Part shown: positions 19,219-63,897 of the stretch, piece after piece
Layout: each line of letters opens with the position of its first letter
Numbering within the stretch: position 1 is the first letter of the stretch
Assembly (NCBI GenBank): GCA_003246295.1
Contig: QKAS01000053.1
Coordinates: forward strand, 46,948 to 110,947
DNA: 64,000 bases
Direction: 5' to 3'
From: Clostridia bacterium
Lineage (GTDB): Bacteria > Bacillota > Clostridia > Lachnospirales > Lachnospiraceae
Notes under the pieces: model-generated
What the model saw: only the letters and a program-made list of their open reading frames with translations
Databases searched by the model: none
What the model was told of the DNA's origin: nothing
Made by a program: the position numbers and the translations under genes

Positions 19219-19242
19219 GTATGATGTGAAACAAGGATAATT

Positions 19243-19315
<73 letters not shown>

Positions 19316-19327
19316 CTAAGTAAATAT

Positions 19328-19398: not shown

Positions 19399-19413
19399 CT
19401 TAATTTCATATAT

Positions 19414-19486
19414 GCGATAGTGGCTCAGTTGGTAGAGCACCTCCTTGCCAAGGAGGAAGTCGCGAGTTCGAGTCTCGTCTATCGCT
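19414..19486 (+). tRNA. tRNA-Gly (GCC)
   Basis: Acceptor GCGATAG/CTATCGC, anticodon loop TTGCCAA, T-loop AGTTCGAGTCT. Confidence 0.9.
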
Positions 19487-19491
19487 CTTTT

Positions 19492-19520
19492 AAAAACCTT
19501 GATATTTCAAGGTTTTTTTG
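19492..19520 (+). terminator. rho-independent terminator closing the tRNA cluster
   Basis: ccttga tatt tcaagg hairpin flanked by A-run and TTTTTTT. Confidence 0.75.
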
Positions 19521-19547
19521 TTATATGGGTAGACAAACATATCACAG

Positions 19548-20306
19548 ATGGAGGAAGCAATGAGAAAAACATTAGAATTTGCAATAAAACAGACAATACC
19601 AGTATTTTGTGGTTATATTTTCCTTGGAATTGCATTCGGACTATTGCTTCAAAAAGCAGGATATTCATTTTTATGGGCATTTTTAATTAGTCTTTTAGTA
19701 TATGCAGGCTCTATGCAGTTTGTTTTAGTAGGATTACTTGCAGGAGGTGCTTCTTTACCTACTGTAGGGATTATGACACTTATGATTAATAGTAGGCATA
19801 TTTTCTATGGACTTTCATTTATTGAAAAATTTAAAAGGATGGGAAGAAAATATTTATATATGATTTTTTCGCTGACAGATGAAACTTATTCTGTGCTTTG
19901 TTCTGTTAAGGTACCAAATGAGATGGACGAGAAGAGAGTATTTTTCATGATATCACTTCTTGATCAGATTTATTGGATTATGGGATCTGTAATAGGTGCA
20001 CTGATTGGAGAAAAGATTCCTTTTAATTCTAAAGGGATAGATTTTGCAATGACGGCATTGTTTATTGTTATTTTTATTGAACAATGGAAAGATTCTAAAA
20101 CACATATTCCTGCGCTGTCTGGAATAGTATCATCTATATTATTTTTAATTATAATGGGTCCGGATTCATTTTTAATGCCCGCCTTAATTACGGTGGTTTT
20201 AATACTGTTAATGGGTAAGCGTAAAATTGTTAAGAAAATCGATTATGATAAGAAACTATCAGAGAAGAGCGAATTGTACGAGAGTAGACAGGAGGAAATG
20301 ATATGA
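19548..20306 (+). CDS. azlC: AzlC-family branched-chain amino acid permease subunit
   Basis: 252 aa polytopic membrane protein, paired and overlapping with a small AzlD-like gene. Confidence 0.8.
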   Translation: MEEAMRKTLEFAIKQTIPVFCGYIFLGIAFGLLLQKAGYSFLWAFLISLLVYAGSMQFVLVGLLAGGASLPTVGIMTLMINSRHIFYGLSFIEKFKRMGRKYLYMIFSLTDETYSVLCSVKVPNEMDEKRVFFMISLLDQIYWIMGSVIGALIGEKIPFNSKGIDFAMTALFIVIFIEQWKDSKTHIPALSGIVSSILFLIIMGPDSFLMPALITVVLILLMGKRKIVKKIDYDKKLSEKSELYESRQEEMI

Positions 20307-42700: not shown

Positions 42701-44080
42701 ATGGAATTTCGTAAGAATGATTGTTTTTCAGTCGTAATTGAAGACATGGGAAATGATGGTGAGGGGATTGGAAAGGTGGATGGGTTTACAGTCTTTGTAA
42801 AAGATGGTATTGTTGGAGATCATCTTCTTATTAAGCTCACCAAAATTAAAAAAAATTATGCATACGCCAGAATAGAGAAGGTAGAGATACCTTCTCCTTT
42901 TCGCACCATACCTAGATGCCCTATACACAAACAATGTGGTGGGTGCCAGATTCAGGCGCTAGATTATATGGAACAATTAGAATTCAAACAGAGAAAAGTG
43001 ATAAATCATCTGGTTCGAATTGGAGGCTTTGAGCAGGACAGAATCGAACGGAGTATGGATTCAATTATTGGTATGGAAGAACCCTACCGTTATCGAAACA
43101 AAGCGCAATATCCTGTTGGTAGGGATAAGGATGGAAATATCATCACTGGATTTTATGCAGGAAGAACACATGTAATCATTCCGGTAGAAGATTGTATGAT
43201 TGGCTCTGAAAAAAATGCAAAGATTCTTAATATTGTTAAAAAATATATGCAGGAGAATTGTGTTACTCCATATGACGAACTGACACACAAAGGTGAGATT
43301 AGACATATTCTGATTCGTATTGGGCAAGATACAGATGAAATTATGGTCAGCCTTGTAATCAATGGTAAAAAATTGCCGAAAGAAGAAATGCTTATTCAGT
43401 TGTTGCGTGAAATCAAAGGAATGACGTCAATTTCTATCAGTAGTAATACTGAAAAAACAAATGTCATCATGGGAAAAGAGATTCGACTTCTATGGGGAAG
43501 TGAGTTTATAACAGATCGAATCGGATCTGTTATATTCAGAATCTCCCCATTGTCATTCTTTCAGGTCAATTCTATTCAGACTGAGAAGTTGTATAGAACA
43601 GCACTTGAGTATGCAGACCTTCAAGGTGGTGAGACAGTGTGGGATCTATATTGCGGAATAGGAACGATTTCATTATTTATGGCTCAAAAAGCTGCTAAAG
43701 TATATGGTGTTGAGATTGTTCCAGAGGCAATTAGAGATGCAAGGGAAAATGCAAAACTGAATCAAATGGACAATGTTACCTTCTTTGTTGGGAAGGCAGA
43801 AGAAATACTACCTGAAAAATACGAATCCGAAAAAATTCATGCAGATGTTATTGTTGTTGATCCTCCCAGGAAAGGGTGTGATCAGGCGTGCCTTGAAACT
43901 ATATTAAAGATGATGCCAGAGAAAGTAGTCTACGTTAGCTGTGATTCTTCTACATTGGCAAGAGATCTTAAAATATTATGCGAAAATGCCTATGAAATAA
44001 AAAAAATAAGAGCAGTCGATCAGTTTTGCCATACGGTGCATGTGGAATGCGTGACACTGCTCCAACGGATAGATACGTAA
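42701..44080 (+). CDS. rlmD: 23S rRNA (uracil-5-)-methyltransferase RlmD/RumA (TRAM + Fe-S + SAM MTase)
   Basis: TRAM N-terminus, Cys cluster CPIHKQCGGC, DLYCGIGT SAM motif, VYVSCD, C-terminal HVECVTLL. Confidence 0.93.
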   Translation: MEFRKNDCFSVVIEDMGNDGEGIGKVDGFTVFVKDGIVGDHLLIKLTKIKKNYAYARIEKVEIPSPFRTIPRCPIHKQCGGCQIQALDYMEQLEFKQRKVINHLVRIGGFEQDRIERSMDSIIGMEEPYRYRNKAQYPVGRDKDGNIITGFYAGRTHVIIPVEDCMIGSEKNAKILNIVKKYMQENCVTPYDELTHKGEIRHILIRIGQDTDEIMVSLVINGKKLPKEEMLIQLLREIKGMTSISISSNTEKTNVIMGKEIRLLWGSEFITDRIGSVIFRISPLSFFQVNSIQTEKLYRTALEYADLQGGETVWDLYCGIGTISLFMAQKAAKVYGVEIVPEAIRDARENAKLNQMDNVTFFVGKAEEILPEKYESEKIHADVIVVDPPRKGCDQACLETILKMMPEKVVYVSCDSSTLARDLKILCENAYEIKKIRAVDQFCHTVHVECVTLLQRIDT

Positions 44081-48165: not shown

Positions 48166-49940
48166 CCAAGATTATGAATATAGGAGCTGGAAAGAAGGGC
48201 AAAATCACAAATCATCTGAAAAATGCGTTAGATTATATAATGAATGAGGCAAAGACAGAAAGTGGAGTTCTGGTGGGCGGGTGGAATTGTGTCCCAAAGC
48301 TTGCTTTTGAACAGATGGTGGGAACAAAAGAATTGTATGGAAAGACAGGCGGAAGGCAGGGATATCATATTGTGATATCCTGTCCGCCTGGAGAGGGAAC
48401 TCCAGAGCAGTTATTGGAATTAATGAAGGAATTTGCACAGGAGTTTTTAGGAGAGGATTATGAGGCGGTGTATAGCGTTCATTCTGATAAGGAACATTGT
48501 CACGGGCATTTGGTTTTTAACAGTGTGAATATGAATACTGGTAAGAAATATGAATATAAAAAAGGTGATTGGAAATATGAGATTCAGCCGATTACCAATC
48601 GTCTTTGTGAGAAATATGGATTATCTATAATGCCAGCGGAGTATAGTAAAGATCCAGTAAATATGAATCGAAAGCAGTGGGAGAAAGAGAAATCTTGGAG
48701 TGAATTTATTGAAGCAGATGTGAAATATTGCCGTGGTGTAGCGGAGGATTATGAACATTTTCTTTATCTGTTGGAAGAATTGGGTTATGAGGTGAAAAAG
48801 GGAGCTCATCTGGCAGTAAAAGCAGAGAAGATGAAGCGTTTTCGTAGACTGGATACGATTAATGAAGAATATTCCAAAGAAAATCTGGAAGCATTCTTTA
48901 CAAAGGGAAGTTTTGCCTTTGAAACACCGAGAGTATTAACACCTGATGTAAAATATTTAATTAAGCCAAAGAATCTCTATCAGCAGAAGTTCTATGCCAA
49001 GCTCTACCGTATGCGTGTTGTTGAAAAGTGTCGTTTTCAATATAAGTCAGCTAGATTTAAAGAGGATTTGGAACGGATGCATATGTTACAAGAGGAGTAT
49101 CTGTTTCTGAGAAGAAAGGATATTAATGGTGTTGCGGATATTGTAACCAAAATTGAATTAGCAGAATTTGATATTAAAAAAATAACCGAGAAGCAGAAAA
49201 CATTGTATCAGGAGCGAGCAGATTTAAAGAGGAAATGTATGACGGGTAATAATATTTTAGACTTTTATACTTCTGAACCTGAATATCGAAAGCAGTTGGA
49301 AGATATTAAATTGGAAAAGAAGAAACTTCAAGGTGAAAAACATATAGCGGAACGTTGCTTGAAAGAAAGTCTTTATGTTGGATTGTTGGTTCCAGAGAAT
49401 ATTGAAATTGGTAATATTTATGAGATTGAAGTGCCGAAGAAACCTTGGTATTTGTGGAAAGAGGAAAGTAAAATGCCGGAAGTAAAAAGGGCGGTTGAAG
49501 TTGCTGCTATTGTTGAGGAAGAAACGGTAGAATCTTTTGAGATGAATACTTTCGATGTGGAATTGGAACCTGATGAAATTATTTCTTCTCACAATGAAAC
49601 GATAGAGGCTATAGAAGAAACAAAAGTATTTGATATTAAAGGTATATCAATGTTTGATGAAATTGAGAAAGCGGTTTACGGGGATGTCGAGCCACAGATG
49701 ACGGTAGTTACCAAGGAAATTTATAAATCTATGACGGATATGGAAAAAGCTGAATGGATTGGCATAGATGGAAATGATGTATATGGGTCAATGAAACGAT
49801 TCCATGAAAAAATGACATCGATTGGTATCTCTTATAAATACAGTTCGGATGAAACAGAAGAGTTTTGTAGATTAGAAGAAATTTGTAGAAAGGAATCAGA
49901 TAGGTCAAGATTTTATAGGAATACAGAGAGAAGCAGGTAG
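48156..49940 (+). CDS. relaxase/mobilization nuclease (MobA/VirD2-type relaxase domain) with long coiled-coil/acidic C-terminus
   Basis: N-terminal relaxase domain with 3-His motif HSDKEHCHGHLVFNSV; start at ATG 48156 (MAITKIMNIG). Confidence 0.85.
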   Translation: MAITKIMNIGAGKKGKITNHLKNALDYIMNEAKTESGVLVGGWNCVPKLAFEQMVGTKELYGKTGGRQGYHIVISCPPGEGTPEQLLELMKEFAQEFLGEDYEAVYSVHSDKEHCHGHLVFNSVNMNTGKKYEYKKGDWKYEIQPITNRLCEKYGLSIMPAEYSKDPVNMNRKQWEKEKSWSEFIEADVKYCRGVAEDYEHFLYLLEELGYEVKKGAHLAVKAEKMKRFRRLDTINEEYSKENLEAFFTKGSFAFETPRVLTPDVKYLIKPKNLYQQKFYAKLYRMRVVEKCRFQYKSARFKEDLERMHMLQEEYLFLRRKDINGVADIVTKIELAEFDIKKITEKQKTLYQERADLKRKCMTGNNILDFYTSEPEYRKQLEDIKLEKKKLQGEKHIAERCLKESLYVGLLVPENIEIGNIYEIEVPKKPWYLWKEESKMPEVKRAVEVAAIVEEETVESFEMNTFDVELEPDEIISSHNETIEAIEETKVFDIKGISMFDEIEKAVYGDVEPQMTVVTKEIYKSMTDMEKAEWIGIDGNDVYGSMKRFHEKMTSIGISYKYSSDETEEFCRLEEICRKESDRSRFYRNTERSR

Positions 49941-50003
49941 AAAACAAGGAATTTTTAACTGTGAATTGAGTAATAAAGTTGTAATTAGAATTATTTATAG
50001 AGG

Positions 50004-50045
50004 ACCATGATTATTTTAGTATTGAAATACTAAAATAATCATGGT
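50004..50045. repeat. near-perfect 42-bp palindrome overlapping the R-M operon promoter
   Basis: Arms 50004-50022 and 50027-50045 (acCATGATTATTTTAGTAT tgaa ATACTAAAATAATCATGgt). Confidence 0.9.
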
Positions 50046-50050
50046 ATAAT
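50022..50050 (+). promoter_or_regulatory. near-consensus extended -10 sigmaA promoter for the R-M/defence operon
   Basis: TTGAAA (50022-50027), 17-nt spacer, TGgTATAAT (50042-50050); the -35 lies at the palindrome centre. Confidence 0.6.
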
Positions 50051-50074
50051 ACTCACATGATTGGAGGTGCCTTT

Positions 50075-51655
50075 GTGGATAATAAGATATTAGATGGAAT
50101 CAATCTATTATATCAGCGAGGAATAACATCAAGAGAAGAATTACTTGTAGAATTCTTGCGAGTAAAGATGACTCAAAAGTTTGTAAAAAAGAATACGAGT
50201 GTTGATGTTCTTTTTTCTAAGATGAAAGAAGTGACAGAGCCAGAGCTAGGAATATACAATGCTGACCGCATGGACTTTCAGAATATGTTTGCTGCATTTG
50301 CAGATGCAAGTGCTATAGAATTTGTTACTCATATTTATAAAGAGGATAGAGGCGGAAGTGTCGTTAGTCCTAAATGCTTGACAGACTATATCGGAGCAAG
50401 AATTCAGCAGATAAGTCCGAAGAATGTTTTAATAACAGAAGCGGAAAAGCATTTACATGGTTTGAAAGAATTAGTGGATGTATGTGCGGGTAATGTTACG
50501 CTTACAAGTCAAAATAAAATGTTTTATCTATTGCTACAGATGATATTTGAAGGTCAGGCTAATGTTACAGTTAGACATATTTCGATTTATACAGATTTAC
50601 TTGTGGAAGATAGGTATGATTATATATTTTGTTTGCCGATTTTTGGATGTAAAATTAATGATGTGGCAGATATCTTCTTTACAAGAGATTCTGATGGAAT
50701 TGCATTACAGAATTTGCTTCAGTATTTAAGTGAAGATGGAAGTATAGATTATATTTCTCCAGCGAAATTATTATTCTCAGGAATGGGATTTGATAAACTT
50801 AGAAAGTTAGTCGAAGAAAGTTATTGGTTGGAAGAGCTGGTCATTTTACCAGATGGACTATTTAGACCATGGACGGCAATAAAGACCTATCTTATTTCAA
50901 TAAGTAAAACAAAGAGGGATAATATTTTAATTGGTTCATTAGAAATCAAAAAAGATTGTTTTCAATTTGAAGAGAAAAGAGATATATCCAGTATAGAGTT
51001 CAATAATCATGAAGATTGGAGAATTGAACTGCTTTTATCAGATGAGAATGAGTGCTTACAACAGTTTAAAACATCAGAGATTCCGAAGAAAAAACTAAAA
51101 GATTTGGCAGAGATTTTTCGAGGAAAGTCTATTCTAAAGAAGGATGCCATGGTTGGGGATATAGCTGTTTTGAATATTAGTAATATTGAAGATGGAGAAA
51201 TCAACTATGATGATCTTGAGACAATCCGAGAAGAAGAGCGTAAGATTAAGCGATATGAACTTTTTCAAGGAGATGTTGTTTTATCCTGTAGAGGAACAGC
51301 AATGAAGACGGCTGTTTTTGAGAAGCAGGAACAAATTGTGATTGCTTCTTCAAATATTATTGTCATCAGACCAGGTAAAGAAATATTGGGAGAATACATT
51401 AAGATATTCTTTGATACTCCAGTTGGAAATATGATGATAAAGAGCTTTCAAAGAGGAAGCACTGTGATGAATATCAATCATACGGATATTATGGAAATGG
51501 AAGTACCATTGCTTCCTTTAGAAAAGCAAGAAGAGATGGTAAGTACTTATAATGAGGAACTGAAAAAATATAAACAGACCGTTTTAGAAGCAGAAAAAAA
51601 GCTAGAGCAAACAAAAAATCAAATATATAAAGTGATACAGGGAGGAAATATATAA
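50075..51655 (+). CDS. HsdM-like domain with degenerate SAM-binding and catalytic motifs, fused to a single HsdS-type target recognition domain
   Basis: Collinear with the neighbouring HsdM, but DPCCGSGGMF -> ITEAEKHLHG and ANPPFN -> CLPIFG. C-terminal TRD plus conserved helix (LPLLPLEKQEE...). GTG 50075 behind GGAGGT preferred over ATG 50057. Confidence 0.7.
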   Translation: MDNKILDGINLLYQRGITSREELLVEFLRVKMTQKFVKKNTSVDVLFSKMKEVTEPELGIYNADRMDFQNMFAAFADASAIEFVTHIYKEDRGGSVVSPKCLTDYIGARIQQISPKNVLITEAEKHLHGLKELVDVCAGNVTLTSQNKMFYLLLQMIFEGQANVTVRHISIYTDLLVEDRYDYIFCLPIFGCKINDVADIFFTRDSDGIALQNLLQYLSEDGSIDYISPAKLLFSGMGFDKLRKLVEESYWLEELVILPDGLFRPWTAIKTYLISISKTKRDNILIGSLEIKKDCFQFEEKRDISSIEFNNHEDWRIELLLSDENECLQQFKTSEIPKKKLKDLAEIFRGKSILKKDAMVGDIAVLNISNIEDGEINYDDLETIREEERKIKRYELFQGDVVLSCRGTAMKTAVFEKQEQIVIASSNIIVIRPGKEILGEYIKIFFDTPVGNMMIKSFQRGSTVMNINHTDIMEMEVPLLPLEKQEEMVSTYNEELKKYKQTVLEAEKKLEQTKNQIYKVIQGGNI

Positions 51656-53157
51656 TGGCAGATGTTACATTAGGATTTGAAAATCAGTTGTGGGATATGG
51701 CAGATAAAATGAGAGGAAGAATGGGTGTTAAAGATACAGAATACGGAAATGTTGTGTTAGGTCTCATTTTCTTGAAATATATCTCTGACAGTTTCGAAGA
51801 AAGATATAATGAGCTTCTAGAAGAAGGAGATGGATTTGAAGAAGACAGAGATGCCTATGCAGAAACGAATGTGTTTTTTGTTCCGCCTTCAGCAAGATGG
51901 GATTTTATTAAAAAGAGTGCAAAATTACCGACTATTGGACAGATCATTGACGATGCAATGATTGCGATAGAGCGAGAAAATAAAACATTAAAGGGAGTTT
52001 TACCTAAAACTTATGCAAGGCAAGAACTTAATAAGCAAGTGTTGGGAGAACTGGTTGATTTGTTTTCTTTTAATCTTGGAAGCAAGGAAGCAAAAGCGCA
52101 GGATATCCTAGGTAGAGTCTATGAATACTTTCTAGGAAACTTTGGTTCTACGGAAGGGGAATATTATACTCCACCATCAATTGTTCAGTTGTTAGTAGAA
52201 ATGATTGAGCCATATGAAGGGCGTGTCTACGATCCCTGCTGTGGAAGCGGTGGTATGTTTGTACAATCTGCAAAATTTGTAAAGGCTCATGAAGGAAAGG
52301 TAGATAATATCCATATTCACGGGCAAGAATCTATATCTGAAACCTGGAGACTTTGTAAAATGAATCTAGCCATTCGTGGTATTGATGGAAATCTTGGGCA
52401 GGAAAATGCAGACACCTTTGGGAATGATCAACATAAAGGACTAAAAGCTGATTATATTTTGGCAAATCCACCATTTAATATCAAGGACTGGGGAGCATCA
52501 AAGCTTACAGATGATGTGCGTTGGAAATATGGAATGCCACCAGAGGGAAATGCAAACTACGCATGGATAGAGCATATTATTAGTAAATTGTCACCACGTG
52601 GAACGGCAGGATTTGTACTTGCAAATGGATCTATGAGTACTGCGCAGAAGCAAGAAGTAGAAATTCGTAAAAATATTATCGAAGAAGGTAAATTGGTGGA
52701 TTGTATTGTTGCACTACCTTCAAATCTATTTTATAACGTGACTATACCAGTTTGTCTGTGGTTCCTATCAAGAAAAAGAGATAATCGTAAAGATAAAATA
52801 CTGTTTATTGATGCAAGAAAAATGGGTGTTATGGAAACCAGAAAACATAGAATTCTCGAAAATGAGGAGATCCAAAAGATTTGTTCGACATATCATTATT
52901 GGAGAGATGGAAAAGAAGAATATAAGGATGAACAAGGATTTTGTAAATCCGCTAGCTTGGAAGATGTTAGAAATACAGGAGATTATATTCTTACTCCAGG
53001 TAGGTATGTTGGCATTGAAGAGCAAGAAGAAGATGGGGAAGTTTTTGAAGTAAAAATGGGAAATTTAAAAACTGAACTATTTAGCTTGTTTCAGAAAAGT
53101 CATGAATTGGAAAAGGAAATAAAATTAAGATTAGAGGCACTAAAGAATGAAGGGTAA
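51655..53157 (+). CDS. hsdM: type I restriction-modification system methyltransferase subunit
   Basis: HsdM_N region, motif I DPCCGSGGMF, motif IV NPPFN; TAATG junction with the upstream gene. Confidence 0.95.
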   Translation: MADVTLGFENQLWDMADKMRGRMGVKDTEYGNVVLGLIFLKYISDSFEERYNELLEEGDGFEEDRDAYAETNVFFVPPSARWDFIKKSAKLPTIGQIIDDAMIAIERENKTLKGVLPKTYARQELNKQVLGELVDLFSFNLGSKEAKAQDILGRVYEYFLGNFGSTEGEYYTPPSIVQLLVEMIEPYEGRVYDPCCGSGGMFVQSAKFVKAHEGKVDNIHIHGQESISETWRLCKMNLAIRGIDGNLGQENADTFGNDQHKGLKADYILANPPFNIKDWGASKLTDDVRWKYGMPPEGNANYAWIEHIISKLSPRGTAGFVLANGSMSTAQKQEVEIRKNIIEEGKLVDCIVALPSNLFYNVTIPVCLWFLSRKRDNRKDKILFIDARKMGVMETRKHRILENEEIQKICSTYHYWRDGKEEYKDEQGFCKSASLEDVRNTGDYILTPGRYVGIEEQEEDGEVFEVKMGNLKTELFSLFQKSHELEKEIKLRLEALKNEG

Positions 53158-54079
53158 CATTAATATTGTATTTGATACAAATTCAATTAAAAAAATTAAT
53201 GATATAGATTATAATTTGTTTGAATTTAATAAAACATTTTTAATAACTGATGCATTTATTACTGGAAATAATATAGAAAATATTCATCTATATATTCCGC
53301 AGATATGTATTGAAGAGCTTTTAATTCAGTATGCAGAAGAATACAAATCTTGCAAAGATATTGTGGATAAGCAATTTGATGAATTAATAGTTGAAACAAG
53401 TAAATTAGGTTGGGATTTGACAATTAGCAAAAATGATGATTTGAATTTTAATGATTATCACAAAAAAATGAAATTATTTTCCGATGAATATATTGAGAAG
53501 TATCAAAATTTAAAAATAATAAATAATTGCAGTGAAAAAAAATTCTCAGAAGTAATCAATAGAGCAATGTTTCGAAAAAAGCCCTTTTTTTCTGGGAGAT
53601 ATAGACAGAAGGATTTTAGCGATGCAGGCTTTAAAGATGTTATTTTTTTAGAAAGTATTAAAGAATATTTTCAAAATCACAATGAAGAAATTATTATTAT
53701 TACTGGTGATGAGATGCTTCTAAGCATAAATACTTTTAAAGAATTCAACTCTGAAAAAGTTCAAATATTGAAATTTGAAAAGGGGGATGAGTTAAAAGAG
53801 TATTTGTGTCAAAAATTAGACATAGTAGATTTATCGGAACAGTATTTGTTTTGTAAGGATCAATATTTCATAGAAAATATTGAAAAAGTATTAAATTGTA
53901 AGATAATAAATTCTGCTATTAATATTGATAAAAAAGAGGAAGATTATATTTTTTATGAAGTTGAGTGCTTGATAGAGAGAAATGAATCGAGAGAAAATAT
54001 ATATGTGCGATTAGATGAGGTTTTTAATTTTGATGAAATATTATCTAAGGATACCGGTGAATCAATACATATTTGGTAG
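53147..54079 (+). CDS. PIN-like domain protein (DUF4935-like) embedded in the type I R-M operon
   Basis: 310 aa; acidic PIN-type positions IVFDTNS, CIEEL, FSDAGFKD, ITGDE; very AT-rich; 11-nt overlap with hsdM. Confidence 0.6.
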   Translation: MKGNINIVFDTNSIKKINDIDYNLFEFNKTFLITDAFITGNNIENIHLYIPQICIEELLIQYAEEYKSCKDIVDKQFDELIVETSKLGWDLTISKNDDLNFNDYHKKMKLFSDEYIEKYQNLKIINNCSEKKFSEVINRAMFRKKPFFSGRYRQKDFSDAGFKDVIFLESIKEYFQNHNEEIIIITGDEMLLSINTFKEFNSEKVQILKFEKGDELKEYLCQKLDIVDLSEQYLFCKDQYFIENIEKVLNCKIINSAINIDKKEEDYIFYEVECLIERNESRENIYVRLDEVFNFDEILSKDTGESIHIW

Positions 54080-54094: not shown

Positions 54095-55264
54095 ATGCAA
54101 AATAGTGAAAAAGTAAAGCTTATGGATATCTGCACTATAAAATATGGAAAAGATCATAAGAAATTGGGCGAAGGAAATATTCCCGCATATGGGACTGGTG
54201 GAATATTTAGATATGTAGATCAATCAATTCATGATAAAAAATCAGTTTTAATTCCCAGAAAAGGAACTTTAACAAATTTATTTCTAGTTAATCCACCATT
54301 TTGGACTGTTGATACATTATTTTGGACAGATATTGATTTGAACTTAGTGGATCCAGACTATCTTTATTATAATCTAAAGATGAAAAATTTGGGAGATTTA
54401 AATGTTGGGACTGCAGTACCAAGCTTAACAACATCAATTCTAAATGAAGTAGAAATAGATTTACCTTCTTTATTAAATCAGAAGGAAATTGCGAAAACAT
54501 TAATATGTTTGGATAATAAGATTGAGGTAAATAAAAAAATTAACTATAATTTACTGCAACAAGCACAGTGCTTATTTAATTCATGGTTTGTTGAATTCGA
54601 ACCATTTGGCGGAATTGCTCCAGATAATTGGATACCAATGTTGTTGAAGGATGTTGTTGATTTTTCGAATGGATATGCATTTAGAAGTAAAGAACTTTTG
54701 ACTGCTCCTGAAGGAGAGTGTTACCATGTTTTTAAGCAGGGGCATATTAATCGTGGCGGAGGTTTTATTCCAACAGGAACAAAAAGCTGGTATCCAAGAT
54801 CAAGCACATTGAGTTTGCAAAAATATGTTTTACAAAAGGGCGATATATTAATGGCTATGACTGATATGAAAGACAATGTTGCGATACTTGGCAATACAGC
54901 TATCATGGGAGTAAATGACCAATATATAGTAAATCAACGCGTAGGTATTTTACGATGTAATGGAAAATTTGGTATTTCATATCCGTATATTTCTTTACTC
55001 ACAAATAGTAATGATTTCTTACAAGATTTACGTAGCAGAGCCAATAGTGGTGTGCAGGTCAATTTATCATCAAATGAAATTAAGGGCTCAAAAGTACTAG
55101 TTGCTCCTTCAAATATTAATATAAAATTCAATAATATTGTAGGTCCTCTTTTTGAAATGATGATTCAAAATGACCTTGAAAATTTACGATTGTCTGAGAT
55201 TAGGGACGTATTACTACCAAAGCTGATGACAGGAGAACTCAATATTTCAGAAATCAAGGTTTAG
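54095..55264 (+). CDS. hsdS: type I restriction-modification system specificity subunit (two TRDs)
   Basis: 389 aa; two TRDs separated by a central conserved helix (LPSLLNQKEIAKTL...) and a C-terminal LLPKLMTGEL helix. Confidence 0.9.
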   Translation: MQNSEKVKLMDICTIKYGKDHKKLGEGNIPAYGTGGIFRYVDQSIHDKKSVLIPRKGTLTNLFLVNPPFWTVDTLFWTDIDLNLVDPDYLYYNLKMKNLGDLNVGTAVPSLTTSILNEVEIDLPSLLNQKEIAKTLICLDNKIEVNKKINYNLLQQAQCLFNSWFVEFEPFGGIAPDNWIPMLLKDVVDFSNGYAFRSKELLTAPEGECYHVFKQGHINRGGGFIPTGTKSWYPRSSTLSLQKYVLQKGDILMAMTDMKDNVAILGNTAIMGVNDQYIVNQRVGILRCNGKFGISYPYISLLTNSNDFLQDLRSRANSGVQVNLSSNEIKGSKVLVAPSNINIKFNNIVGPLFEMMIQNDLENLRLSEIRDVLLPKLMTGELNISEIKV

Positions 55265-55314: not shown

Positions 55315-56127
55315 ATGAAAATTCCAATATCGGATGCAATTATCATTGCTATATCTAACTTAATAGATGATGCACAAATTGAAACTAGGAAGCCAAGTCA
55401 TTATGATTTAGAAGAAGAGATAGTAAAATCTCGACTTCAAGGTGTTGATCCAAACAAGCAGGGAAAAAGTTTTGGTAAAGCAAAACGAATAAAAAGTATA
55501 CTATCTTGGGCAATAGAAAATGATAATGAGGCAGGTAGTAAGTTAGTTGAAAATATTATTAATTTGATACGTGGCAACGGCGGGTTCAGAGAAGATTCAC
55601 CTAACTATGTTGGTGAACATGCAATTGCTAATGCAATTGATGCATTTCAAGTCGAAGGAATTGCCATGGGAAGTGATGGTGTTTTGCTTCCACTTGTTAT
55701 TGATAATTTATCAGCGCTTGAGCAGAAGACAGCATTGATGGCATATGTGAATAGAGCAAGAAGAGGAGCTGAAGATGCTGCGCTTTTGGCAGGGACAAGT
55801 AAGGATTTATTAGAAGCAGTGGCAGCATATGTTTTGACGGAGAAATTTGGAGAATATTCAATAAGAGATAATTTTCCGACGTTATTGGGACAAGCATTTA
55901 TTTCCTTGGGGTTAGCAACACCACAGAATAAAAAAGTTGCTGGAGAACCAGTTCAAAAAGATTTGGAGCGGTCTATGTATGAAAGTGCATGTTCGATAAA
56001 TAAATTAAGAAACAAACAAGGAACGGGGCATGGGCATCCTTTTGTAACTACTTTGTCGAAGGAAGAAGGTAAGGTTGTAATCTCTATTATGGGAGCAATT
56101 GCAGAATATATGTTAGCGAAATTGTAA
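55315..56127 (+). CDS. Abi_C (abortive infection C-terminal) domain protein embedded between hsdS and hsdR
   Basis: C-terminal region with SKDLLEAV...NKLRNKQGTGHG motif characteristic of Abi_C as I recall it; N-terminal domain unrecognised. Confidence 0.6.
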   Translation: MKIPISDAIIIAISNLIDDAQIETRKPSHYDLEEEIVKSRLQGVDPNKQGKSFGKAKRIKSILSWAIENDNEAGSKLVENIINLIRGNGGFREDSPNYVGEHAIANAIDAFQVEGIAMGSDGVLLPLVIDNLSALEQKTALMAYVNRARRGAEDAALLAGTSKDLLEAVAAYVLTEKFGEYSIRDNFPTLLGQAFISLGLATPQNKKVAGEPVQKDLERSMYESACSINKLRNKQGTGHGHPFVTTLSKEEGKVVISIMGAIAEYMLAKL

Positions 56128-56140: not shown

Positions 56141-59100
56141 GTGAAAAATAATTTCTGTGAATCACATCTAGAAGAAGCAACACTGGAATGGTTCCAAGAG
56201 CTTGGTTACGATACCGTTTTTGGACCAGAGATTTCACCGGAAGGAGATTATCCAGAACGTGAAGATTACAGTGAAGTTATTCTAGCAGAACGTGTAAGAC
56301 AAGCAATATCAGATTTTAATCCAGAGTTACCGGAAGAAGCGATTGAGGAAGCATATCGAAAGATAGCAGTGCCACAGAGTCCTTCTATGGTCATGAATAA
56401 TAAAACATTTCAAAAAATGATTACTGATGGAATAGAAGTATCTTATCGTCAAAACGACGGGACGATTCGTCATGTTTTAGCCAGAGTATTTGACTTTATA
56501 CACTGGGATAGAAATGATTTTCTAGCAGTGAATCAGTTTACTATTATTGAAAGTCGAATTGAGAAGAGACCTGATGTTGTTGTATTTGTAAATGGTATTC
56601 CGCTTGTAGTCATTGAGTTAAAGAGTGCGATTAATGAGGATGTGGATATTTCAGATGCCTATAATCAATTACAGACATACAAGATGTCAATTCCATCCAT
56701 GTTTACATACAATTCCTTTATGGTTATATCTGATGGAATTAACGCAAGAGCGGGTACGATTACTTCTGATGAAGAACGCTTTATGGCATGGAGAACAATT
56801 GATGGTGATGGTGTTGCTCCTTTGTCTATACCCCAGTTGGAAGTTTTGATAAAAGGGATGTTCGAAAGAGAACGATTCCTTGATATTATCAAACAGTTTG
56901 TACTATTTCAGACAGATGGAAAAGATACCTACAAGATTCTTGCAGGATATCACCAGTATCATGCGGTAAATAAAGCAGTAGAAAGCACTGTAAGAGCTAC
57001 CTCTCAAAAAGGAGATAGACGAATCGGTGTTGTATGGCATACCCAGGGAAGTGGAAAAAGTCTGTCCATGGCATTTTATGCTGGAAAACTTGTTATTAGT
57101 GAAGAACTGGAAAATCCAACGATTGTAGTGATTACCGATAGAAATGATTTAGATGACCAACTATTCTCGACCTTTGCGAAATGCAAAGATCTTCTTCGTG
57201 GAGAGCCAATACATGCAACAGACAGAGTGCATTTAAGGGAATTACTGAATAACCGTACTAGTGGTGGAATTATTTTTACCACAATTCAAAAATTTGCTCC
57301 TGAGAAAAAAACAAATAAGGGAGAAAATATTTTAACAGATGCTGGAGCTTATGTTTCAGAACCTTATGAATATAGTATAGCTGCTGAATCATCAGGAGAA
57401 TACAATACAGAGCCAGTTGTCCTGACCGAACGTCATAATGTCATCGTTATGGCAGACGAAGCTCACAGAAGCCAATATGGTTTTGGTGCTGACGTAATAG
57501 AAGATGAAGATGGAGCTGATGTAAAATATGGATACGCAAAACATATGCGTGCTGCATTGCCTAATGCTTCTTATATTGGATTTACCGGAACACCAATTTC
57601 ATTAACAGATAAAAATACAACAGCTGTTTTTGGTGATTATATTGACGTTTATGATATGACTCGTGCAGTAGAAGATGGAACAACAGTTAAGATTTTCTAT
57701 GAAAGCAGAATCGCTAAGCTTGAATTACCAGAGAATCTAAAACCTACAATTGATAGTGAATACGAAGATATCACAGAATATCAAGAAGAAACCCAGAGAG
57801 AGAAACTAAAGAGTAAATGGTCTCGTTTAGAAGCCATTGTAGGATCGCAAGAACGAGTTGGGCTGATTGCGAAAGATATTGTAGAACATTTTGAAAAGAG
57901 ACAAGCTGCACAGGAAGTTGCTGGTGGCAAAGCTATGGTTGTGTCTATGAGCCGTAGAATCGCCATTGACTTATATAATGAAATTATAGCGCTGCGTCCT
58001 GACTGGCACAGTGATGATTTGATGAGTGGTAAGATTAAAGTAGTTATGACGGGGTCATCCTCTGATCCAGTTGAATGGCAGAAGTTTATTGGAACAAAGT
58101 CTACAAGAGAAACACTTGCAAAACGTATGAAAGATGTAAAGGATGAATTACAGCTTGTTATTGTAAGAGACATGTGGCTTACTGGATTTGACGTTCCTAG
58201 CATGCATACTATGTATATTGATAAACCAATGCAGGGTCATAACTTAATGCAGGCAATTGCCCGTGTAAACCGTGTCTTTAAGGAAAAACAGGGTGGACTT
58301 GTTGTTGATTATATTGGGATAGCAGAAAACTTAAAAGATGCTTTGGCTCAATATACAGAAAGTGATAGAAAAACAACCGGTGTTGATACAGAAATGGCAG
58401 CATCTATCATGCTAGAGAAACTGGAATTGATAAAAGAATTATTGCATGAACATGACTACTCAAAATTCTTTACCGGAACGCCTAAAGATAAAATGCAGGC
58501 AATCATTGAAACCATGGATTTCGTTATTGGTCTACGTGAGGATGGCAAAAAAGAATATATGAAATATGTAACGGAATTATCCAGAGCATTTTCTTTATGT
58601 GCAACAACAGATGCTGCACAAACTATTAATGATGAAATAAGTTTCCACAAGGCTGTGAAGGTTTCTTTAATTAAGATGATTGAAGATACCAAGAAAAAGA
58701 AAACAGTTTCTCAGCTGGATAGTGAATTGAATCAGTTGGTATCAAAATCAATTTCATCAAATGAAGTAATCGATATATTTAGCGAAGTTGGTCTGAATAA
58801 GCCTAACATAGCGTTATTATCTGAGGAATTCTTGGAAGAAGTAAGGGGAATGAAGCAGAAAAATCTTGCGGTAGAGTTGTTAGAGCGTTTGCTAAAAGGA
58901 ACCATAAAGACATTTTCAAGGAGAAACCTTGTACAATCAAAGAAATTCTCAGAACTCCTTGAACAGTCTATTCATAAATATCAAAACCGTGCTATTGAAA
59001 CAACGCAGATAATAATGGAATTGATAGAACTTGCGAAGCAGATAACAGAAGCTGAAAAACGTGGAAAAGCATCAGGACTAACTGATGATGAATTAGCTTT

Positions 59101-59362
59101 CTATGATGCACTTGCAGACAATGAGTCGGCAAAAGAGATCATGGGCGATGACATTTTGAAACAGATTGCAAGAGATCTGACTTCTGCTATTAAAGGAAGC
59201 GTAACCGTTGACTGGTCAATCCGTGACAGCGTTCAGGCTAAGATGAAGATGGTAGTAAAACGATTGCTTAAGAAATATGGTTATCCACCTGATAAGCAGG
59301 AAAAAGCTGTTGAAATCGTAATGGAACAGACAAAACTTATGTGTGAGAATGAGGTGAATTAG
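56141..59362 (+). CDS. hsdR: type I restriction endonuclease subunit R
   Basis: 1073 aa; nuclease D...ELK motif ([18 protein letters not shown]), Walker A TQGSGKS, DEAH box MADEAHRSQ, helicase C motifs; GTG start behind AAGGAGG. Confidence 0.95.
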
Positions 59363-59367: not shown

Positions 59368-60720
59368 ATGAAACGTGTAGGAATGGGAAGTAGTAATCAA
59401 GAAATAGTTGAAGCACTGTCTCAAAATCTTGGTAACAGGAATGAAAATTTAGCAAGTTTTCTTACAATGCTTGATTATATTGACGGAAACTTTTCGATTG
59501 CTATTGATGGGAAATGGGGAAGTGGCAAGACTGTTTTTGTTAAACAAATTATTATGCTACTCAACTATTACAATAGTTTTTCAAATATCAAGCCATTAGG
59601 ATTACAAGCGGTCATTGAGAATAGAGGACTTAAATTGCATGACATTGTTTTACAAAATAATTTCGTGCCAGTTTACTTCAATGCATGGGATAATGATGAA
59701 CAAGATGATCCTACACTTTCTTTAATATTCTCAATAATTCAAGAGTATAACGGGTTCTCTAATGATACTAAGATTAAAAAAAGCATTGTAGAGAAAATAG
59801 CTGCTATTGTGGATGCAATTACACCGTGGAATAGTGGAAGCTTTTCTAAATTAGCTGAAACCTTTCAAGGAGATGATATCTTATTGCCGATTAAAAATCT
59901 TGAAAAAGCAAAAGAAATTGTCATGCTTTTGCTAGATGAGTTACTGGTTGAAAAGGGTGACAAATTGGTTATATTTATTGATGAACTTGATAGATGTAAT
60001 CCCATTTATGCAGTAAAGTTGTTAGAAAAGATTAAACATTTATTTGATGATGAGAGATTTATTTTTGTATTTTCAACTAACTTAGAACAATTGTCATTTG
60101 TAATTCAGAATTATTATGGCAGTAATTTTGCATCATATAGATATTTGGAAAAAATATTTGATGTAATGTTTATGATGAATGAAATCTCTATAGCAGATTA
60201 TATGAAATTGCAAGGAATTCCAAATGATTCTTATCATTTCCATTCAATATGCCATTATATGGCAAAACACTATTCATTTTCAATGAGAGAATGTAATAGA
60301 TATATACAGCAAATAAAGCTAGTATATGAGTATGCTATGAAACAAAGAAGTGGATTTTCGGATACTAATGGATATAATTTTACATTAATATTCTTTTTAC
60401 CAGTTCTGATAGCGGTGAAAATGCGAGATGTCATTGAATTTGTTAAAATTATTGATGGAAAAGGAAAAGATGTCTTTATACAGATATTGTGTAACGATGA
60501 TGAAGTAACTAAAAGAATAAAGAGATATTTACGTACAGGTGATCAAGTGAATATTTCGGATGATGAATATATTTTGCAAATGGGCGAGATATATGATGTT
60601 ATTTTTAATAATCTCGGATCTTCTGAATATCATGGTTCAAACATTGAATTGGATAGAAATGCAAAAAAATATCTAATGGATGTAGTTTCGCTGTTAAACA
60701 GAAAATTAAATTATGAATAG
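59368..60720 (+). CDS. KAP-family P-loop NTPase
   Basis: Walker A IDGKWGSGKT, Walker B VIFIDELDRC, insert typical of KAP; starts 5 nt after the hsdR stop. Confidence 0.75.
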   Translation: MKRVGMGSSNQEIVEALSQNLGNRNENLASFLTMLDYIDGNFSIAIDGKWGSGKTVFVKQIIMLLNYYNSFSNIKPLGLQAVIENRGLKLHDIVLQNNFVPVYFNAWDNDEQDDPTLSLIFSIIQEYNGFSNDTKIKKSIVEKIAAIVDAITPWNSGSFSKLAETFQGDDILLPIKNLEKAKEIVMLLLDELLVEKGDKLVIFIDELDRCNPIYAVKLLEKIKHLFDDERFIFVFSTNLEQLSFVIQNYYGSNFASYRYLEKIFDVMFMMNEISIADYMKLQGIPNDSYHFHSICHYMAKHYSFSMRECNRYIQQIKLVYEYAMKQRSGFSDTNGYNFTLIFFLPVLIAVKMRDVIEFVKIIDGKGKDVFIQILCNDDEVTKRIKRYLRTGDQVNISDDEYILQMGEIYDVIFNNLGSSEYHGSNIELDRNAKKYLMDVVSLLNRKLNYE

Positions 60721-60728
60721 GAGAAATG

Positions 60729-60947
60729 ATGGCTGACATTAAATATGAAATTGTAGAAGAAATCGGTGTACTATCCGAAAATGCAAAAGGCTGGAGGAAA
60801 GAACTTAATCTTATCAGTTGGAATGATGGAGCTCCTAAGTACGATATTCGTGACTGGGCTCCTGAGCATGAGAAGATGGGCAAAGGTACAACTTTGGCGA
60901 AAGAAGAAGTTGTTAAGTTGAAGGAACTTTTGAATACGTTGTTTTAA
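60729..60947 (+). CDS. YdbC-like PC4-fold ssDNA-binding protein (DUF2128)
   Basis: 72 aa MADIKYEIVEEIGVLSENAKGWRKELNLISWNDGAPKYDIRDW..EKMGKG closely resembles my recollection of Lactococcus YdbC; AGGAG 5 nt upstream of ATG 60729. Confidence 0.65.
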   Translation: MADIKYEIVEEIGVLSENAKGWRKELNLISWNDGAPKYDIRDWAPEHEKMGKGTTLAKEEVVKLKELLNTLF

Positions 60948-61979: not shown

Positions 61980-63254
61980 ATGTTAATAATGTTTAAAGTA
62001 AAAAACTACACATCTTTTAAGGACGAAGCAATTTTAGATATGAGGGCGGCTTCTTATAAACAACATACAACACATTTATTAGAAACTTATGATGGAACAA
62101 AGCTAGTTAAGACCGCTGCTATTTATGGTGCAAATGCATCAGGAAAATCTAATTTTATTTCAGCTATGTTTTTCTTCGAAAAGTATATTTTTGAACAATT
62201 TATTACAAAGAATGAAGCAGAAGAGTATGATTTTTCGAGTAAGGATTTGGAAACAAGGTTGGAACCATTCCAGTTATCAGAAGATAACAATGGGGCTTCT
62301 GAGTTTGATATTATGTTTTCGTGTAATGATAAAACTATCCAGTATGGCTTTGAATGTACGTCAGAAGAAGTAATAAGTGAATGGTATTACATTAATGATA
62401 AGAAGGTATTTGAACGCAATGGAAGTCAGGTTACGTTTGGAAAATCTTATGAAAAATATATTAAGGAATTTACAAAAGTTCCAAAAGAACGACTGTATTT
62501 ATCAGTATTAGAATACTTTCTTGGTGAAAAGGAAAAAGAAATTATTTTATATGATTTCGTGGAATTTTTCCAAAAAGAATATGATGTATTTTTGGAACTT
62601 TTCTTTGAATCAACAATCAAACATATTGCTGGTTTGGTAAGAATTAACGAACGTATCGTTAAGGATAAAAACTTTAGAAAGAAAGTCGAAAAGTATTTAA
62701 GCCAGATTGATGTTGGTATCAAGGGGCTGGATGTTCAGGTAAAAACAGTAGTTGATGAGAAAACTGGAAAAGAGAAAAAGCGTAAAACATTAAAGACAAT
62801 ACATGACATATATGATGATAATGGTTTGGTTTGTGGGCAAAAGGAATTCGAACTACCACAAGAGTCAACTGGAACATTACGTTTTTTAACATACATTCAG
62901 GAAGTTATCGAAATGACAGAAAGAGGAGGTGTGTTTGTTGTTGATGAAATTTCTGCAAGGCTTCATCCTTTATTGACAAAGCTAATTGTAGATATTTTTC
63001 AAGATAGCAAAAACACGAAAGCACAGCTGATTTTCACAACACACGATATCTCTTTGTTGAACAAAGAACAGTTTAGAAGGGATGAAGTGGTTTTTGTTGA
63101 TAAGAACCATAAAGGAGAATCATCTTTATATGCATTGTCTGATTTAAAGGTAAGAGATGATGCAACTTTTAATAAGGACTATTTGCAGGGTAAGTACGGT
63201 GCAATTCCAATCTTTAATTATGATGGAATTTTAGGCGGTGATGCGATTGGGTAG
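61980..63254 (+). CDS. AAA_21/ABC-type ATPase (RloA/AbiLi-like)
   Basis: Walker A GANASGKSN, Walker B VFVVDEISARLHP, TTHD His-loop; AGGAGG 7 nt upstream. Confidence 0.8.
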   Translation: MLIMFKVKNYTSFKDEAILDMRAASYKQHTTHLLETYDGTKLVKTAAIYGANASGKSNFISAMFFFEKYIFEQFITKNEAEEYDFSSKDLETRLEPFQLSEDNNGASEFDIMFSCNDKTIQYGFECTSEEVISEWYYINDKKVFERNGSQVTFGKSYEKYIKEFTKVPKERLYLSVLEYFLGEKEKEIILYDFVEFFQKEYDVFLELFFESTIKHIAGLVRINERIVKDKNFRKKVEKYLSQIDVGIKGLDVQVKTVVDEKTGKEKKRKTLKTIHDIYDDNGLVCGQKEFELPQESTGTLRFLTYIQEVIEMTERGGVFVVDEISARLHPLLTKLIVDIFQDSKNTKAQLIFTTHDISLLNKEQFRRDEVVFVDKNHKGESSLYALSDLKVRDDATFNKDYLQGKYGAIPIFNYDGILGGDAIG

Positions 63255-63897
63255 AACCATGTTATCACCATCCAGACAAAAAAATATAAAGAATACAAAC
63301 CTTGGACACATGATTTTATTTTGTGAAGGACTAACAGAAAAATACTATTTTGAATATTTTACCGACATAATTGAAAAAAATAAATTCAATGATGTTCGGA
63401 TCGAGATAGAATCAGCTGATGGTAATTCAAGCCGAGTTTTGAAGTTTGCAGATGAATATCTTGCTGTCGAAGATAATAATAGAAAATACAGTAATTATAA
63501 AAAGTATTTGGTGTTTGATTGTGATGCACCTCCAAATATACAGAAGGTTATTGATAAAATCTGCTTATCTGAAAATAGTTATGAAATGTTAGTTTCAAAT
63601 TACTTATTTGAGACGTGGTTATTAATGCATTTTGAAAATGTAACAGAAAAAATCTCTAAAGAACACACCTACAAGCGTTTAAGTGAGCATTTGGTAAATG
63701 AATACAAAAAAGCAAGTGCAGGTCTTATTAGAGAAATTATTCAAAATGGCAGTGTAGAAGAAGCTATGAAAAATGCTGAAAGTTTGGCAGAGAAGTATTC
63801 ACAAGAAGGAAAAAACATTTGCAATTCAATTGGAAAAATGAATCCATATACAAATGTTAATATATTAGTTGAGCAGCTATTGGCTGTAATAAGTTGA
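63238..63897 (+). CDS. RloB-like protein (Toprim-like; AbiLii-like)
   Basis: ILFCEGLTEKYYFEYF N-terminal motif and LVFDCD acidic motif; overlaps the ATPase gene by 17 nt (start could instead be ATG 63259). Confidence 0.65.
   Translation: MMRLGRTMLSPSRQKNIKNTNLGHMILFCEGLTEKYYFEYFTDIIEKNKFNDVRIEIESADGNSSRVLKFADEYLAVEDNNRKYSNYKKYLVFDCDAPPNIQKVIDKICLSENSYEMLVSNYLFETWLLMHFENVTEKISKEHTYKRLSEHLVNEYKKASAGLIREIIQNGSVEEAMKNAESLAEKYSQEGKNICNSIGKMNPYTNVNILVEQLLAVIS

Follow-up and report, generated by a model that had tools for sequence, protein, structure and literature searches.

Results and discussion

A predicted operator-binding regulator at the head of a Type I restriction-modification operon

The DNA analysed here, referred to as the window, is a 64-kb stretch from a Clostridia bacterium of the Lachnospiraceae (GenBank assembly GCA_003246295.1, contig QKAS01000053.1, positions 46,948 to 110,947). 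It carries a Type I restriction-modification (R-M) operon whose first gene encodes a protein, denoted X, in which a methylase-like domain is fused to a half specificity subunit with a single target recognition domain (TRD). The analysis, which is computational throughout, points to X being a homodimeric, non-methylating, operator-binding autoregulator of this operon; we consider this role likely, and within it repression the probable mode of action.

A conserved palindrome in the promoter of X

An alignment of the DNA upstream of X genes revealed a near-universal palindrome, TTTAGTAT-TGAC-ATACTAAA. Its counterpart in the window, the predicted operator TAGTAT-TGAA-ATACTA (TAGTATTGAAATACTA), is the sole match with zero to two mismatches in the 64 kb, and is extended on each side by 13 bp of perfect palindrome into the 42-bp element ACCATGATTATTTTAGTAT-TGAA-ATACTAAAATAATCATGGT (Table 1). 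A promoter scan of the window found TTGAAA, a spacer of 17 nt and TG-n-TATAAT, with 11 of 12 matches; when the operator is read as TAGTA-N6-TACTA, its spacer is the -35 hexamer itself. Upstream of X, 67 of 77 loci have the 16-mer TAGTATTGACATACTA with at most two mismatches. Of the ten other loci, three fall out because of N runs, an insertion of 1 nt or a wrongly set start; the remaining seven, mostly from the Paenibacillus clade, have three or four mismatches. Among 70 unique sites, conservation is 96-100% over the GTAT/ATAC cores with their flanking TA, G3, T4, A5, T6, T12, A13 and T15 being the same in every site, and 87-94% over the four central bases; the outer sequence is not conserved. 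The half-sites are also intact in loci whose spacer is not a -35 hexamer, including L051, L052 and L204, which have a TTGAC box of their own just downstream of the palindrome, and L064, L045 and L058, which have other spacers; the half-sites are therefore constrained independently of RNA polymerase contacts. Such a free spacer is as expected for bipartite recognition of the Type I style.

In a reciprocal scan, the exact 18-mer gave at least 120 matches in metagenome contigs. Among the 120 matches listed, 73 have the start of an X gene at most 400 nt downstream, 9 more precede a divergent or differently started X, and 9 lie on contigs too short to judge. The exact 18-mer was also seen before unrelated genes, with plausible -10 boxes, in L150, L160, L179, L186, L189 and L191; judging by their N-terminal sequences, these genes include an apparent ATPase and an AbrB-type antitoxin, and such sites could be either chance occurrences or regulated in trans.

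Most loci show no palindrome beyond a 20-bp core. In about 30% of them (the window, L037, L041, L064, L029, L020 and others) the palindrome is perfect over 30-58 bp, and its outer arms differ between loci yet stay complementary, the arm taking in the -10 hexamer in L037 and L041. The pattern resembles one of selection, or of templated mutation, that acts on base pairing itself, with cruciform formation or quasi-palindrome templated mutation as candidate causes. A search of window positions 49800-50200 against Rfam returned only meaningless miRNA-hairpin matches (E above 0.4) and no known RNA family. Since a scan for intrinsic terminators found none near the palindrome, a terminator role of the long palindrome is unsupported; a single-strand (Frpo-like) promoter was rejected as well, because the -35 would be in the loop and most loci lack a relaxase.

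Related palindromes in two other protein contexts

A second subfamily of proteins related to X, here called X2, has more than 680 members, from hosts that include Bacillus cereus, Lysinibacillus, Paenibacillus and Clostridioides difficile. Its members are about 30% identical to X in the N-terminal part and 44-48% identical in the TRD and the helix that follows it. All seven X2 loci examined contain T(G/A)GTAT-N4-ATAC(C/T)A with variable spacers (six were found by scan, and that of L206 was read across two masked spacer bases); it precedes the start by 87-92 nt in the six loci where this was measured. The TGGTAT form accounts for 11 of 14 half-sites in X2 loci, versus 2 of 140 in the X clade.

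The other context is that of Esub1 (SpyM3_0890) of Streptococcus pyogenes (PDB 8VSQ/8VSR), a crystallographic homodimer with one TRD and one helix per chain (PMC11754733). Its authors suggest, speculatively, that it is a transcription factor, while its function and DNA site are unassigned; they also found that the phage protein paratox binds its insertion helix RxPhixR, on the DNA-binding face, and conclude that DNA binding is blocked (PMC11754733). The last 183 residues of X match Esub1 (PDB 8VSQ) with an E value of 9e-34. The two proteins share a homologous TRD and conserved-region (CR) helix, about 35% identical by BLASTP, as well as the RxPhixR insertion-helix segment and a single dimerisation helix; R395-K-I-K-R399 of X aligns with R65-Q-L-L-R69 of Esub1, and R395, K396, K398 and R399 are invariant in the X family. 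Unlike X, which has an N-terminal extension of 340 residues, Esub1 has about 200 aa and no methylase-like domain, and it is encoded by a core chromosomal gene without R-M neighbours. Exact TAGTAT-N4-ATACTA was nevertheless found 25-35 nt before the Esub1 start in three of five streptococcal species (S. pyogenes, S. iniae and a third), each with its own spacer, and a fourth species has TTGTAT-TAGA-ATACAA. The predicted promoter site of Esub1 has the sequence TAGTATCTAAATACTA and, from a reading of the locus sequences, the palindrome overlaps or contains the apparent -10 hexamer. These observations suggest a binding site and an autoregulatory role for Esub1, in which case paratox would de-repress it.

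The X, X2 and Esub1 contexts share a single element, the module formed by the TRD and the CR helix, which points to that module as the reader of the palindrome. HsdM and HsdR are not the readers, because they are absent from the Esub1 loci and of a different type in the X2 loci. The neighbouring enzyme, made of two methylase subunits and HsdS, was rejected as reader too, since HsdS varies between loci while the palindrome is constant. Moreover, two identical half-sites, related by two-fold symmetry and separated by an unread spacer, would be the geometry expected of a homodimer of half-S proteins.

X in the context of its operon across genomes

Synteny was analysed in 80 loci from species-representative genomes, 75 of them with sufficient downstream sequence. 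The hsdM gene directly follows X in 70 of these 75 loci, with hsdS and hsdR next where the loci reach far enough, so that X is a constant fourth gene in one subfamily of Type I systems. Compared with the genes of the window, hsdM is 61-81% and hsdR 62-77% identical across the loci, while hsdS is 23-33% identical, with a few partial alignments near 50%. That the TRD of X remains constant while HsdS diversifies implies one fixed DNA target. It had been proposed in the initial annotation, made from the sequence of the window, that X is a sequence-reading protein, and this is supported by the pairing of a constant TRD with a constant palindrome in the promoter of its own gene.

Five loci depart from this order: two have an hsdR fragment, and one each has an apparent transposase gene, ABC-transporter-like genes or helicase/nuclease-like genes. 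In a locus from the Thermotogaceae (L077, 3795-12535), X and its operator are followed by genes for proteins of 981 aa, 1024 aa (helicase-like) and 375 aa (with an SbcD/Mre11-like N-terminal motif), and there is no hsdM; X may have been re-used there to control another system. The X2 operons (L205-L211; for instance L207, from C. difficile, 9001-19604) have a different Type I layout, in which X2 is followed by an often present small variable gene, a gene for an 805-aa fusion of ADP-ribosylglycohydrolase, HsdM_N and N6_Mtase domains, an ordinary HsdM, HsdS and an HsdR of 969 aa. No description was found of this two-methylase arrangement with an ADP-ribosyl hydrolase domain.

Domain composition of X and loss of the catalytic motifs

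The AlphaFold model of X (mean pLDDT, the predicted local confidence, 79.7) comprises an all-helical N-terminal domain, a Rossmann-like sheet, a single TRD and a long C-terminal helix (Table 1). The N-terminal domain has no Pfam match, and in particular none to HsdM_N, which matches the adjacent HsdM with an E value of 1.9e-25; it is kept within the family, at 64% mean pairwise identity. A Rossmann-type methylase fold is present according to both Foldseek and a partial Pfam match to N6_Mtase, restricted to the C-terminal half of that family (residues 217-342, E 3e-6). The top Foldseek matches of the model were 7EEW, CamA, 2OKC, M.TaqI and the M protein of PacII (E 1e-10 to 1e-17; template-modelling scores 0.42-0.54), that is, Type I or gamma-class N6-adenine methylases with attached recognition domains, together with Esub1 for the C-terminus. 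A PDB search with the Rossmann part alone retrieved only 5YBB, at the motif IV region, and spurious leucine-rich-repeat matches. The C-terminal part matches Pfam Methylase_S (PF01420; residues 344-497, E 1.6e-14), and X is also matched by many PADLOC Specificity_I models and by EcoKI HsdS (2Y7C). The CR helix is modelled as one long helix with a pLDDT of about 90 and aligns with the dimerisation helix of Esub1, so that X has one TRD and one CR helix versus two and two in single-chain HsdS. Pfam and NCBIfam scans of X found no helix-turn-helix family. The C-terminal composition first proposed for X, one TRD followed by a dimerisation helix, is borne out by the Methylase_S and Esub1 matches, and the structure prediction that had been recommended led to N6-adenine methylases and Esub1 as relatives.

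The catalytic motif IV was located by three independent alignments, in which 'YDYIFCLPIFG' of X is paired with 'FDVVVSNPPFS' of BsaXI, 'FDVVVTNPPFG' of the HsdM 5YBB and, by hhalign, 'ADYILANPPFN' of the adjacent HsdM. The same hhalign run pairs LVILPDGLFRPWTA of X with a 13-residue segment of the adjacent HsdM. The replacement of ANPPFN by CLPIFG, as initially described, agrees with all three profile alignments. The collinearity of blocks between X and the adjacent HsdM, which had been drawn by hand, holds from motif IV onwards, including the LVILPDGLFRPWTA pairing; the motif I stretch is not aligned by sequence profiles, and was placed by the model and by collinearity. In the model, strand beta1 (residues 123-126) leads directly into helices over TEAEKHLHGLKELV. 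The position after beta1 is that where a Rossmann-fold methylase has FxGxG for binding S-adenosylmethionine (SAM); in X the segment is TEAEKHLHGL, predicted helical and without a Gly-rich loop, and it is this position in the model, not a sequence alignment, that upholds the earlier assignment of ITEAEKHLHG to motif I. Within the remnant E128 is nearly invariant in the family, and A129, E130, H132, L133 and G135 are invariant. The acidic residue of motif II appears to be the invariant Gln152 in X, as placed by position only. Taken together, the changes in these motifs suggest that X is non-methylating.

Conservation of the family

Full-length relatives of X, about 527 aa long and 51-56% identical to it, number more than 400 and come from Clostridia, Desulfitobacteriia, Negativicutes, Paenibacillus and Thermotogae. 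A search with its N-terminal 343 residues against 1.8 billion representatives gave 72 clusters at E <= 1e-10, nearly all of 515-560 aa. The plasmid collection held only remote methylase-S fusions (22-31% identity, annotated as 'N-6 DNA methylase') and no close relative, and viral contigs a single relative. Members of the X family appear in public records under the names 'restriction endonuclease subunit S' or 'N-6 DNA methylase'.

Whether the loss of motifs is conserved or sporadic, a question put forward with the initial annotation, was addressed in 25 aligned homologues at 51-56% identity and about 50 representatives down to about 25%, and it proved to be conserved in both sets. Across the surveyed family, X2 included, motif IV reads (S/C/I)(L/I/V)PxFG instead of NPPF, and (T/A/P)E-x-E-(K)-x, without a Gly triad, occupies the place of motif I. 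Intact motifs (DPxCGxGGF, NPPF/Y) occur only in the most remote matches (P0247, P0249 and P0254). As the replacement motifs are common to both subfamilies, the loss is ancient and has been maintained. About 130 columns are invariant among the sequences 51-56% identical to the window protein, and mean pairwise identity is 79% in the TRD, 61% in the Rossmann-like part and 48% in the dimerisation helix. The possibility that X is a functionless, decaying remnant of a methylase-S fusion, for which only the missing catalytic motifs speak, is effectively refuted by full-length open reading frames (ORFs) in more than 1,000 clusters from Clostridia, Bacilli, Negativicutes and Thermotogae, by the invariant columns and by the conservation of the replacement motifs themselves.

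Proposed mechanism and alternative explanations

X would be derived from a single-chain Type I methylase, composed of a methylase domain and a half-S, that lost its SAM-binding and catalytic motifs and kept its DNA-reading head. Two copies would pair through the C-terminal CR helix, as Esub1 does in the crystal, and the two identical TRDs of the dimer would read TAGTAT-N4-ATACTA. Because the unread spacer is the -35 hexamer in the window and in most relatives, bound X should exclude RNA polymerase. It would thereby autoregulate, most likely repress, the operon X-hsdM-(PIN)-hsdS-(Abi_C)-hsdR, including the embedded genes, so that entry into a new cell would be followed by a burst of expression and then by a low steady level. 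The pseudo-methylase domain may act as a DNA clamp, as in HsdM, and flipping of an adenine onto the retained F196 without chemistry is conceivable.

Several observations weigh against this proposal. The physical contact of X with the palindrome, the dimer and the sign of the regulatory effect are inferences, and the mechanism would not seem to need the 340-residue pseudo-methylase part, which Esub1 lacks. Motif I is assigned from the predicted structure only, and hhalign of the family versus the adjacent HsdM aligned the two from motif IV onwards only (probability 7.7%, E 0.0045). About 29 of the 120 metagenome matches listed lie in other contexts, which may reflect chance, targets in trans or another binder, and the fifth of the five Esub1 loci has no obvious palindrome. 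In X2 loci and in the clade of L051, L052 and L204, 6-15 nt separate the palindrome from the -35 that follows it, an arrangement also compatible with activation. Finally, 22 of 73 operator sites have a perfect palindrome extension of at least 7 bp, the 99th percentile of the null (7-21 bp past the 16-mer), with arms that are not conserved in sequence, which hints at a DNA or RNA hairpin function beyond simple protein binding.

Retention of the whole pseudo-methylase domain would be accounted for if operator-bound X, besides being a repressor, also mimicked the complex of two methylase subunits and one specificity subunit (M2S1), so that anti-restriction proteins of phages (DNA mimics like Ocr or ArdA, or paratox-like proteins) strip it off the operator. 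An attack on the R-M enzyme would then de-repress both the R-M genes and the PIN and Abi_C toxins embedded among them, X would be an infection sensor, and Esub1 and paratox in S. pyogenes would be explained in the same way. It is consistent with this that 7EEW, the top structural match, is a fusion of a methylase and a half-S (M-S1/2) crystallised with Ocr bound, that X keeps the invariant R395-K-I-K-R399 at the position where paratox binds the Esub1 insertion helix, and that operons of the X family carry variable embedded genes (PIN_12 and Abi_C here, others in relatives). The idea is, on the other hand, entirely inferential: the pseudo-methylase could be a plain DNA clamp, Esub1 has no R-M context, and the pLDDT of the insertion segment of X is below 50. 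We therefore regard this addition to the repressor model as tentative and rather unlikely.

The extended arms bear on a different explanation, which we consider improbable, namely that the palindrome is not the target of X and is instead either a structural element, in cruciform or hairpin form, or bound by another factor, with X acting elsewhere in the R-M complex, for instance in buffering HsdR assembly or in restriction alleviation during establishment. Extension in 22 of 73 sites with non-conserved arms is a signal of the base-pairing type and not of protein contact, and the identity of the pseudo-methylase co-varies with that of HsdM and HsdR across loci. Yet the X, X2 and Esub1 contexts have no other gene in common, the invariant core has the two-fold bipartite geometry of a half-S dimer, the base of the half-site shifts with the protein clade, and most loci are unextended past the 20-bp core.

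A more distant alternative is that X is an active methylase with non-canonical motifs that methylates the adenines of its own operator, which would result in epigenetic autoregulation. X does have the fold of an N6-adenine methylase and keeps P194, F196 and G197 of motif IV, and SGVPFG stands at the corresponding place in the alignment of 7EEW, whose PDB title indicates that it binds S-adenosylhomocysteine (SAH). This is hard to reconcile with a motif I site that is predicted helical and Gly-rich in no member of the family, with the change of the motif IV Asn/Asp to Leu, Ile or Val throughout, with an invariant Gln152 that, placed by position only, appears to stand for the acidic residue of motif II, with a Pfam N6_Mtase match limited to the C-terminal half, and with the presence of separate, intact hsdM and hsdS genes in the operon, and we consider it very unlikely.

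Of the three roles initially envisaged for X, that of a regulator is favoured and that of a sensor is a possible addition to it, while that of an alternative specificity module, which would broaden restriction by bringing HsdR (or HsdM) to a further, symmetric target, finds slightly less credit still than an active methylase. In Type IC systems, a functional specificity subunit can be made up of a half-S dimer, according to literature cited in PMC12429846, and X is co-transcribed with hsdM and hsdR. The TRD of X is, however, constant over hundreds of systems whereas specificity modules diversify, its conserved site, in its own promoter, would be unmethylated and hence subject to self-restriction, and a complete hsdS with two TRDs is already there.

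Gene coordinates and island setting

The features of X, its promoter and the surrounding genes are listed in Table 1. The GTG at 50075 is the likely start of X, since GGAGG lies 7 nt upstream and homologues start at the aligned position; the in-frame ATG at 50057 falls near the expected transcription start of the operon. The stop codon of X and the start of hsdM share one base (TAATG), X being the first gene of the operon, and with these signals the coordinates and the first-gene position originally given to X stand.

In related loci, gaps between homologue matches indicate insertions of other sizes where the PIN_12 and Abi_C genes sit, and the insertion of these two genes resembles that of PrrC/Rlo-type genes embedded in Type I operons. 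Downstream, genes for a KAP-family nucleoside triphosphatase (NTPase), a DUF2971 protein and an AbiLi/AbiLii pair form a defence island, the DUF2971 gene and then the pair lying beyond a gene for a PC4-like protein. The PC4-like gene, which the KAP NTPase gene separates from hsdR in the window, is found about 80-250 nt past hsdR in L001, L003, L013, L016, L060 and L071. Upstream of X there are genes for a relaxase, MobC/NikA, an actin-like segregation protein, TnpV and ParB, and the island is therefore on a mobilisable element. These are preceded by a RumA/TrmA-type gene, and a gene of this type also lies just upstream of X2 islands in L207 (5977-7338) and L210 (5230-6600); this common flank of the window and two X2 islands suggests an integration hot spot in common.

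Table 1. Features of gene X, its promoter and neighbouring genes in the window, and palindromes in Esub1 promoters
Feature	Position	Strand	Remarks
RumA/TrmA-type RNA uracil methyltransferase gene	42701-44080		precedes the mobilisation genes
42-bp palindrome holding the operator	50004..50045	.	only two central bases unpaired
Predicted operator TAGTAT-TGAA-ATACTA	50017..50032	.	family consensus TAGTAT-N4-ATACTA
-35 hexamer TTGAAA	50022..50027	+	inside operator spacer; TTGACA in most relatives
-10 hexamer TATAAT	50045..50050	+	TG ahead (extended -10)
ORF containing X	50057..51655	+	532 aa
Shine-Dalgarno GGAGG	50063..50067	+	7 nt ahead of GTG start
Gene X, pseudo-methylase / half-S fusion	50075..51655	+	526 aa counted from GTG
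N-terminal all-helical domain	50081..50413	+	residues 9-119 of 532-aa ORF; secondary structure of model
Rossmann-like pseudo-methylase domain	50417..50989	+	residues 121-311; Foldseek matches, partial Pfam N6_Mtase
Remnant of SAM motif I, LITEAEKHLHG	50429..50461	+	no Gly-rich loop; family alignments and position after beta1
Remnant of catalytic motif IV, CLPIFG for NPPF(G/N)	50630..50647	+	P194, F196 invariant; Asn/Asp lost
Single HsdS-type TRD	51086..51514	+	residues 344-486; Pfam Methylase_S, Esub1 match; most conserved part
R395-K-I-K-R399 segment	51239..51253	+	aligned with Esub1 'insertion helix' RxPhixR
C-terminal 40-residue CR helix	51518..51637	+	residues 488-527; presumed dimerisation helix
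hsdM	51655..53157	+	intact DPCCGSGG and NPPF motifs; translationally coupled to X
PIN_12-domain gene	53147..54079	+	inside operon, between hsdM and hsdS
hsdS	54095..55264	+	full length, two TRDs; varies between related loci
Abi_C-domain gene	55315..56127	+	inside operon, between hsdS and hsdR
hsdR	56141..59362	+	domains HSDR_N, SWI2_SNF2, T1RH-like_C
KAP-family NTPase gene	59368-60720		after hsdR
PC4-like (PF02229) protein gene	60726-60947		73 aa
AbiLi/AbiLii pair	61980-63897		AriA-like matches; island end
Esub1-promoter palindromes	L081 3961-3976; L082 3961-3976; L083 3966-3981

Significance and comparison with known systems

If the proposed role is correct, X and its relatives would constitute a new and very widespread class of regulators of Type I R-M operons and defence islands, with hosts such as C. 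difficile, B. cereus, Paenibacillus and many gut and sediment anaerobes, and X would be, as far as we have found, the first case in which an HsdS TRD and a dead methylase serve as a transcription factor. That Type I systems are controlled at the level of transcription became apparent only recently, with RptR. The results also give Esub1 a concrete candidate DNA target and suggest an effect of paratox binding. The names currently given to these proteins inflate the counts of specificity and methylase genes. We found no paper on the X family, its operator, TRD-based transcription factors or inactive or fused HsdM/HsdS regulators in a literature search whose coverage excluded most subscription journals, so that a prior description is possible.

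The closest structural relative of X is the M-S1/2 protein of Vibrio vulnificus YJ016 (7EEW), its best Foldseek match (E 1e-16, about 14% sequence identity), in which, as in X, a methylase domain, one TRD and one CR helix are joined in one chain. M-S1/2 is presented as a 'minimal intact methyltransferase' (Seo et al. 2022, as cited in PMC12429846), two chains of which recapitulate M2S1; it belongs to a Type I R-M operon and is described as the methylase of that system. It was crystallised with SAH, whereas X has no Gly-rich SAM loop and lies beside separate, intact hsdM and hsdS genes. Fusions of this kind would represent an identifiable ancestor type of X. In 7EEW itself, SGVPFG is found at about residues 255-265, where NPPF is expected, and its own catalytic competence may merit a second look.

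With canonical HsdM and HsdS, X shares the gamma-class N6-adenine methylase fold and the Methylase_S TRD, but it differs from them in having neither FxGxG nor (N/D)PP(F/Y), only one TRD and one CR, and a TRD that is conserved and not hypervariable. The C proteins of Type II systems are helix-turn-helix (Xre-type) proteins of about 80 aa that often act as activator-repressors. X would resemble them as a first-gene autoregulator of an R-M operon, with a symmetric operator in its own promoter and a role in timing and homeostasis after transfer, but it is a 526-aa fusion of a pseudo-methylase and a TRD, belongs to a Type I system and has no helix-turn-helix. In gammaproteobacterial Type I R-M islands that have toxin genes embedded in them, the gene that comes first encodes RptR, a small repressor tested experimentally, which represses its own promoter and binds TAGCTA repeats (PMC12255303). 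Like X, RptR heads Type I R-M operons with embedded toxin genes and is widely tied to Type I systems, although the two proteins are unrelated and RptR is small. X shares with the controller class a gene at the operon head and, in the promoter of that gene, a symmetric operator that is conserved. It is not a member of the HsdM, HsdS or C-protein families because it lacks defining features of each. X is thus likely to be an R-M operon autoregulator in kind, although one of an unprecedented type of protein.

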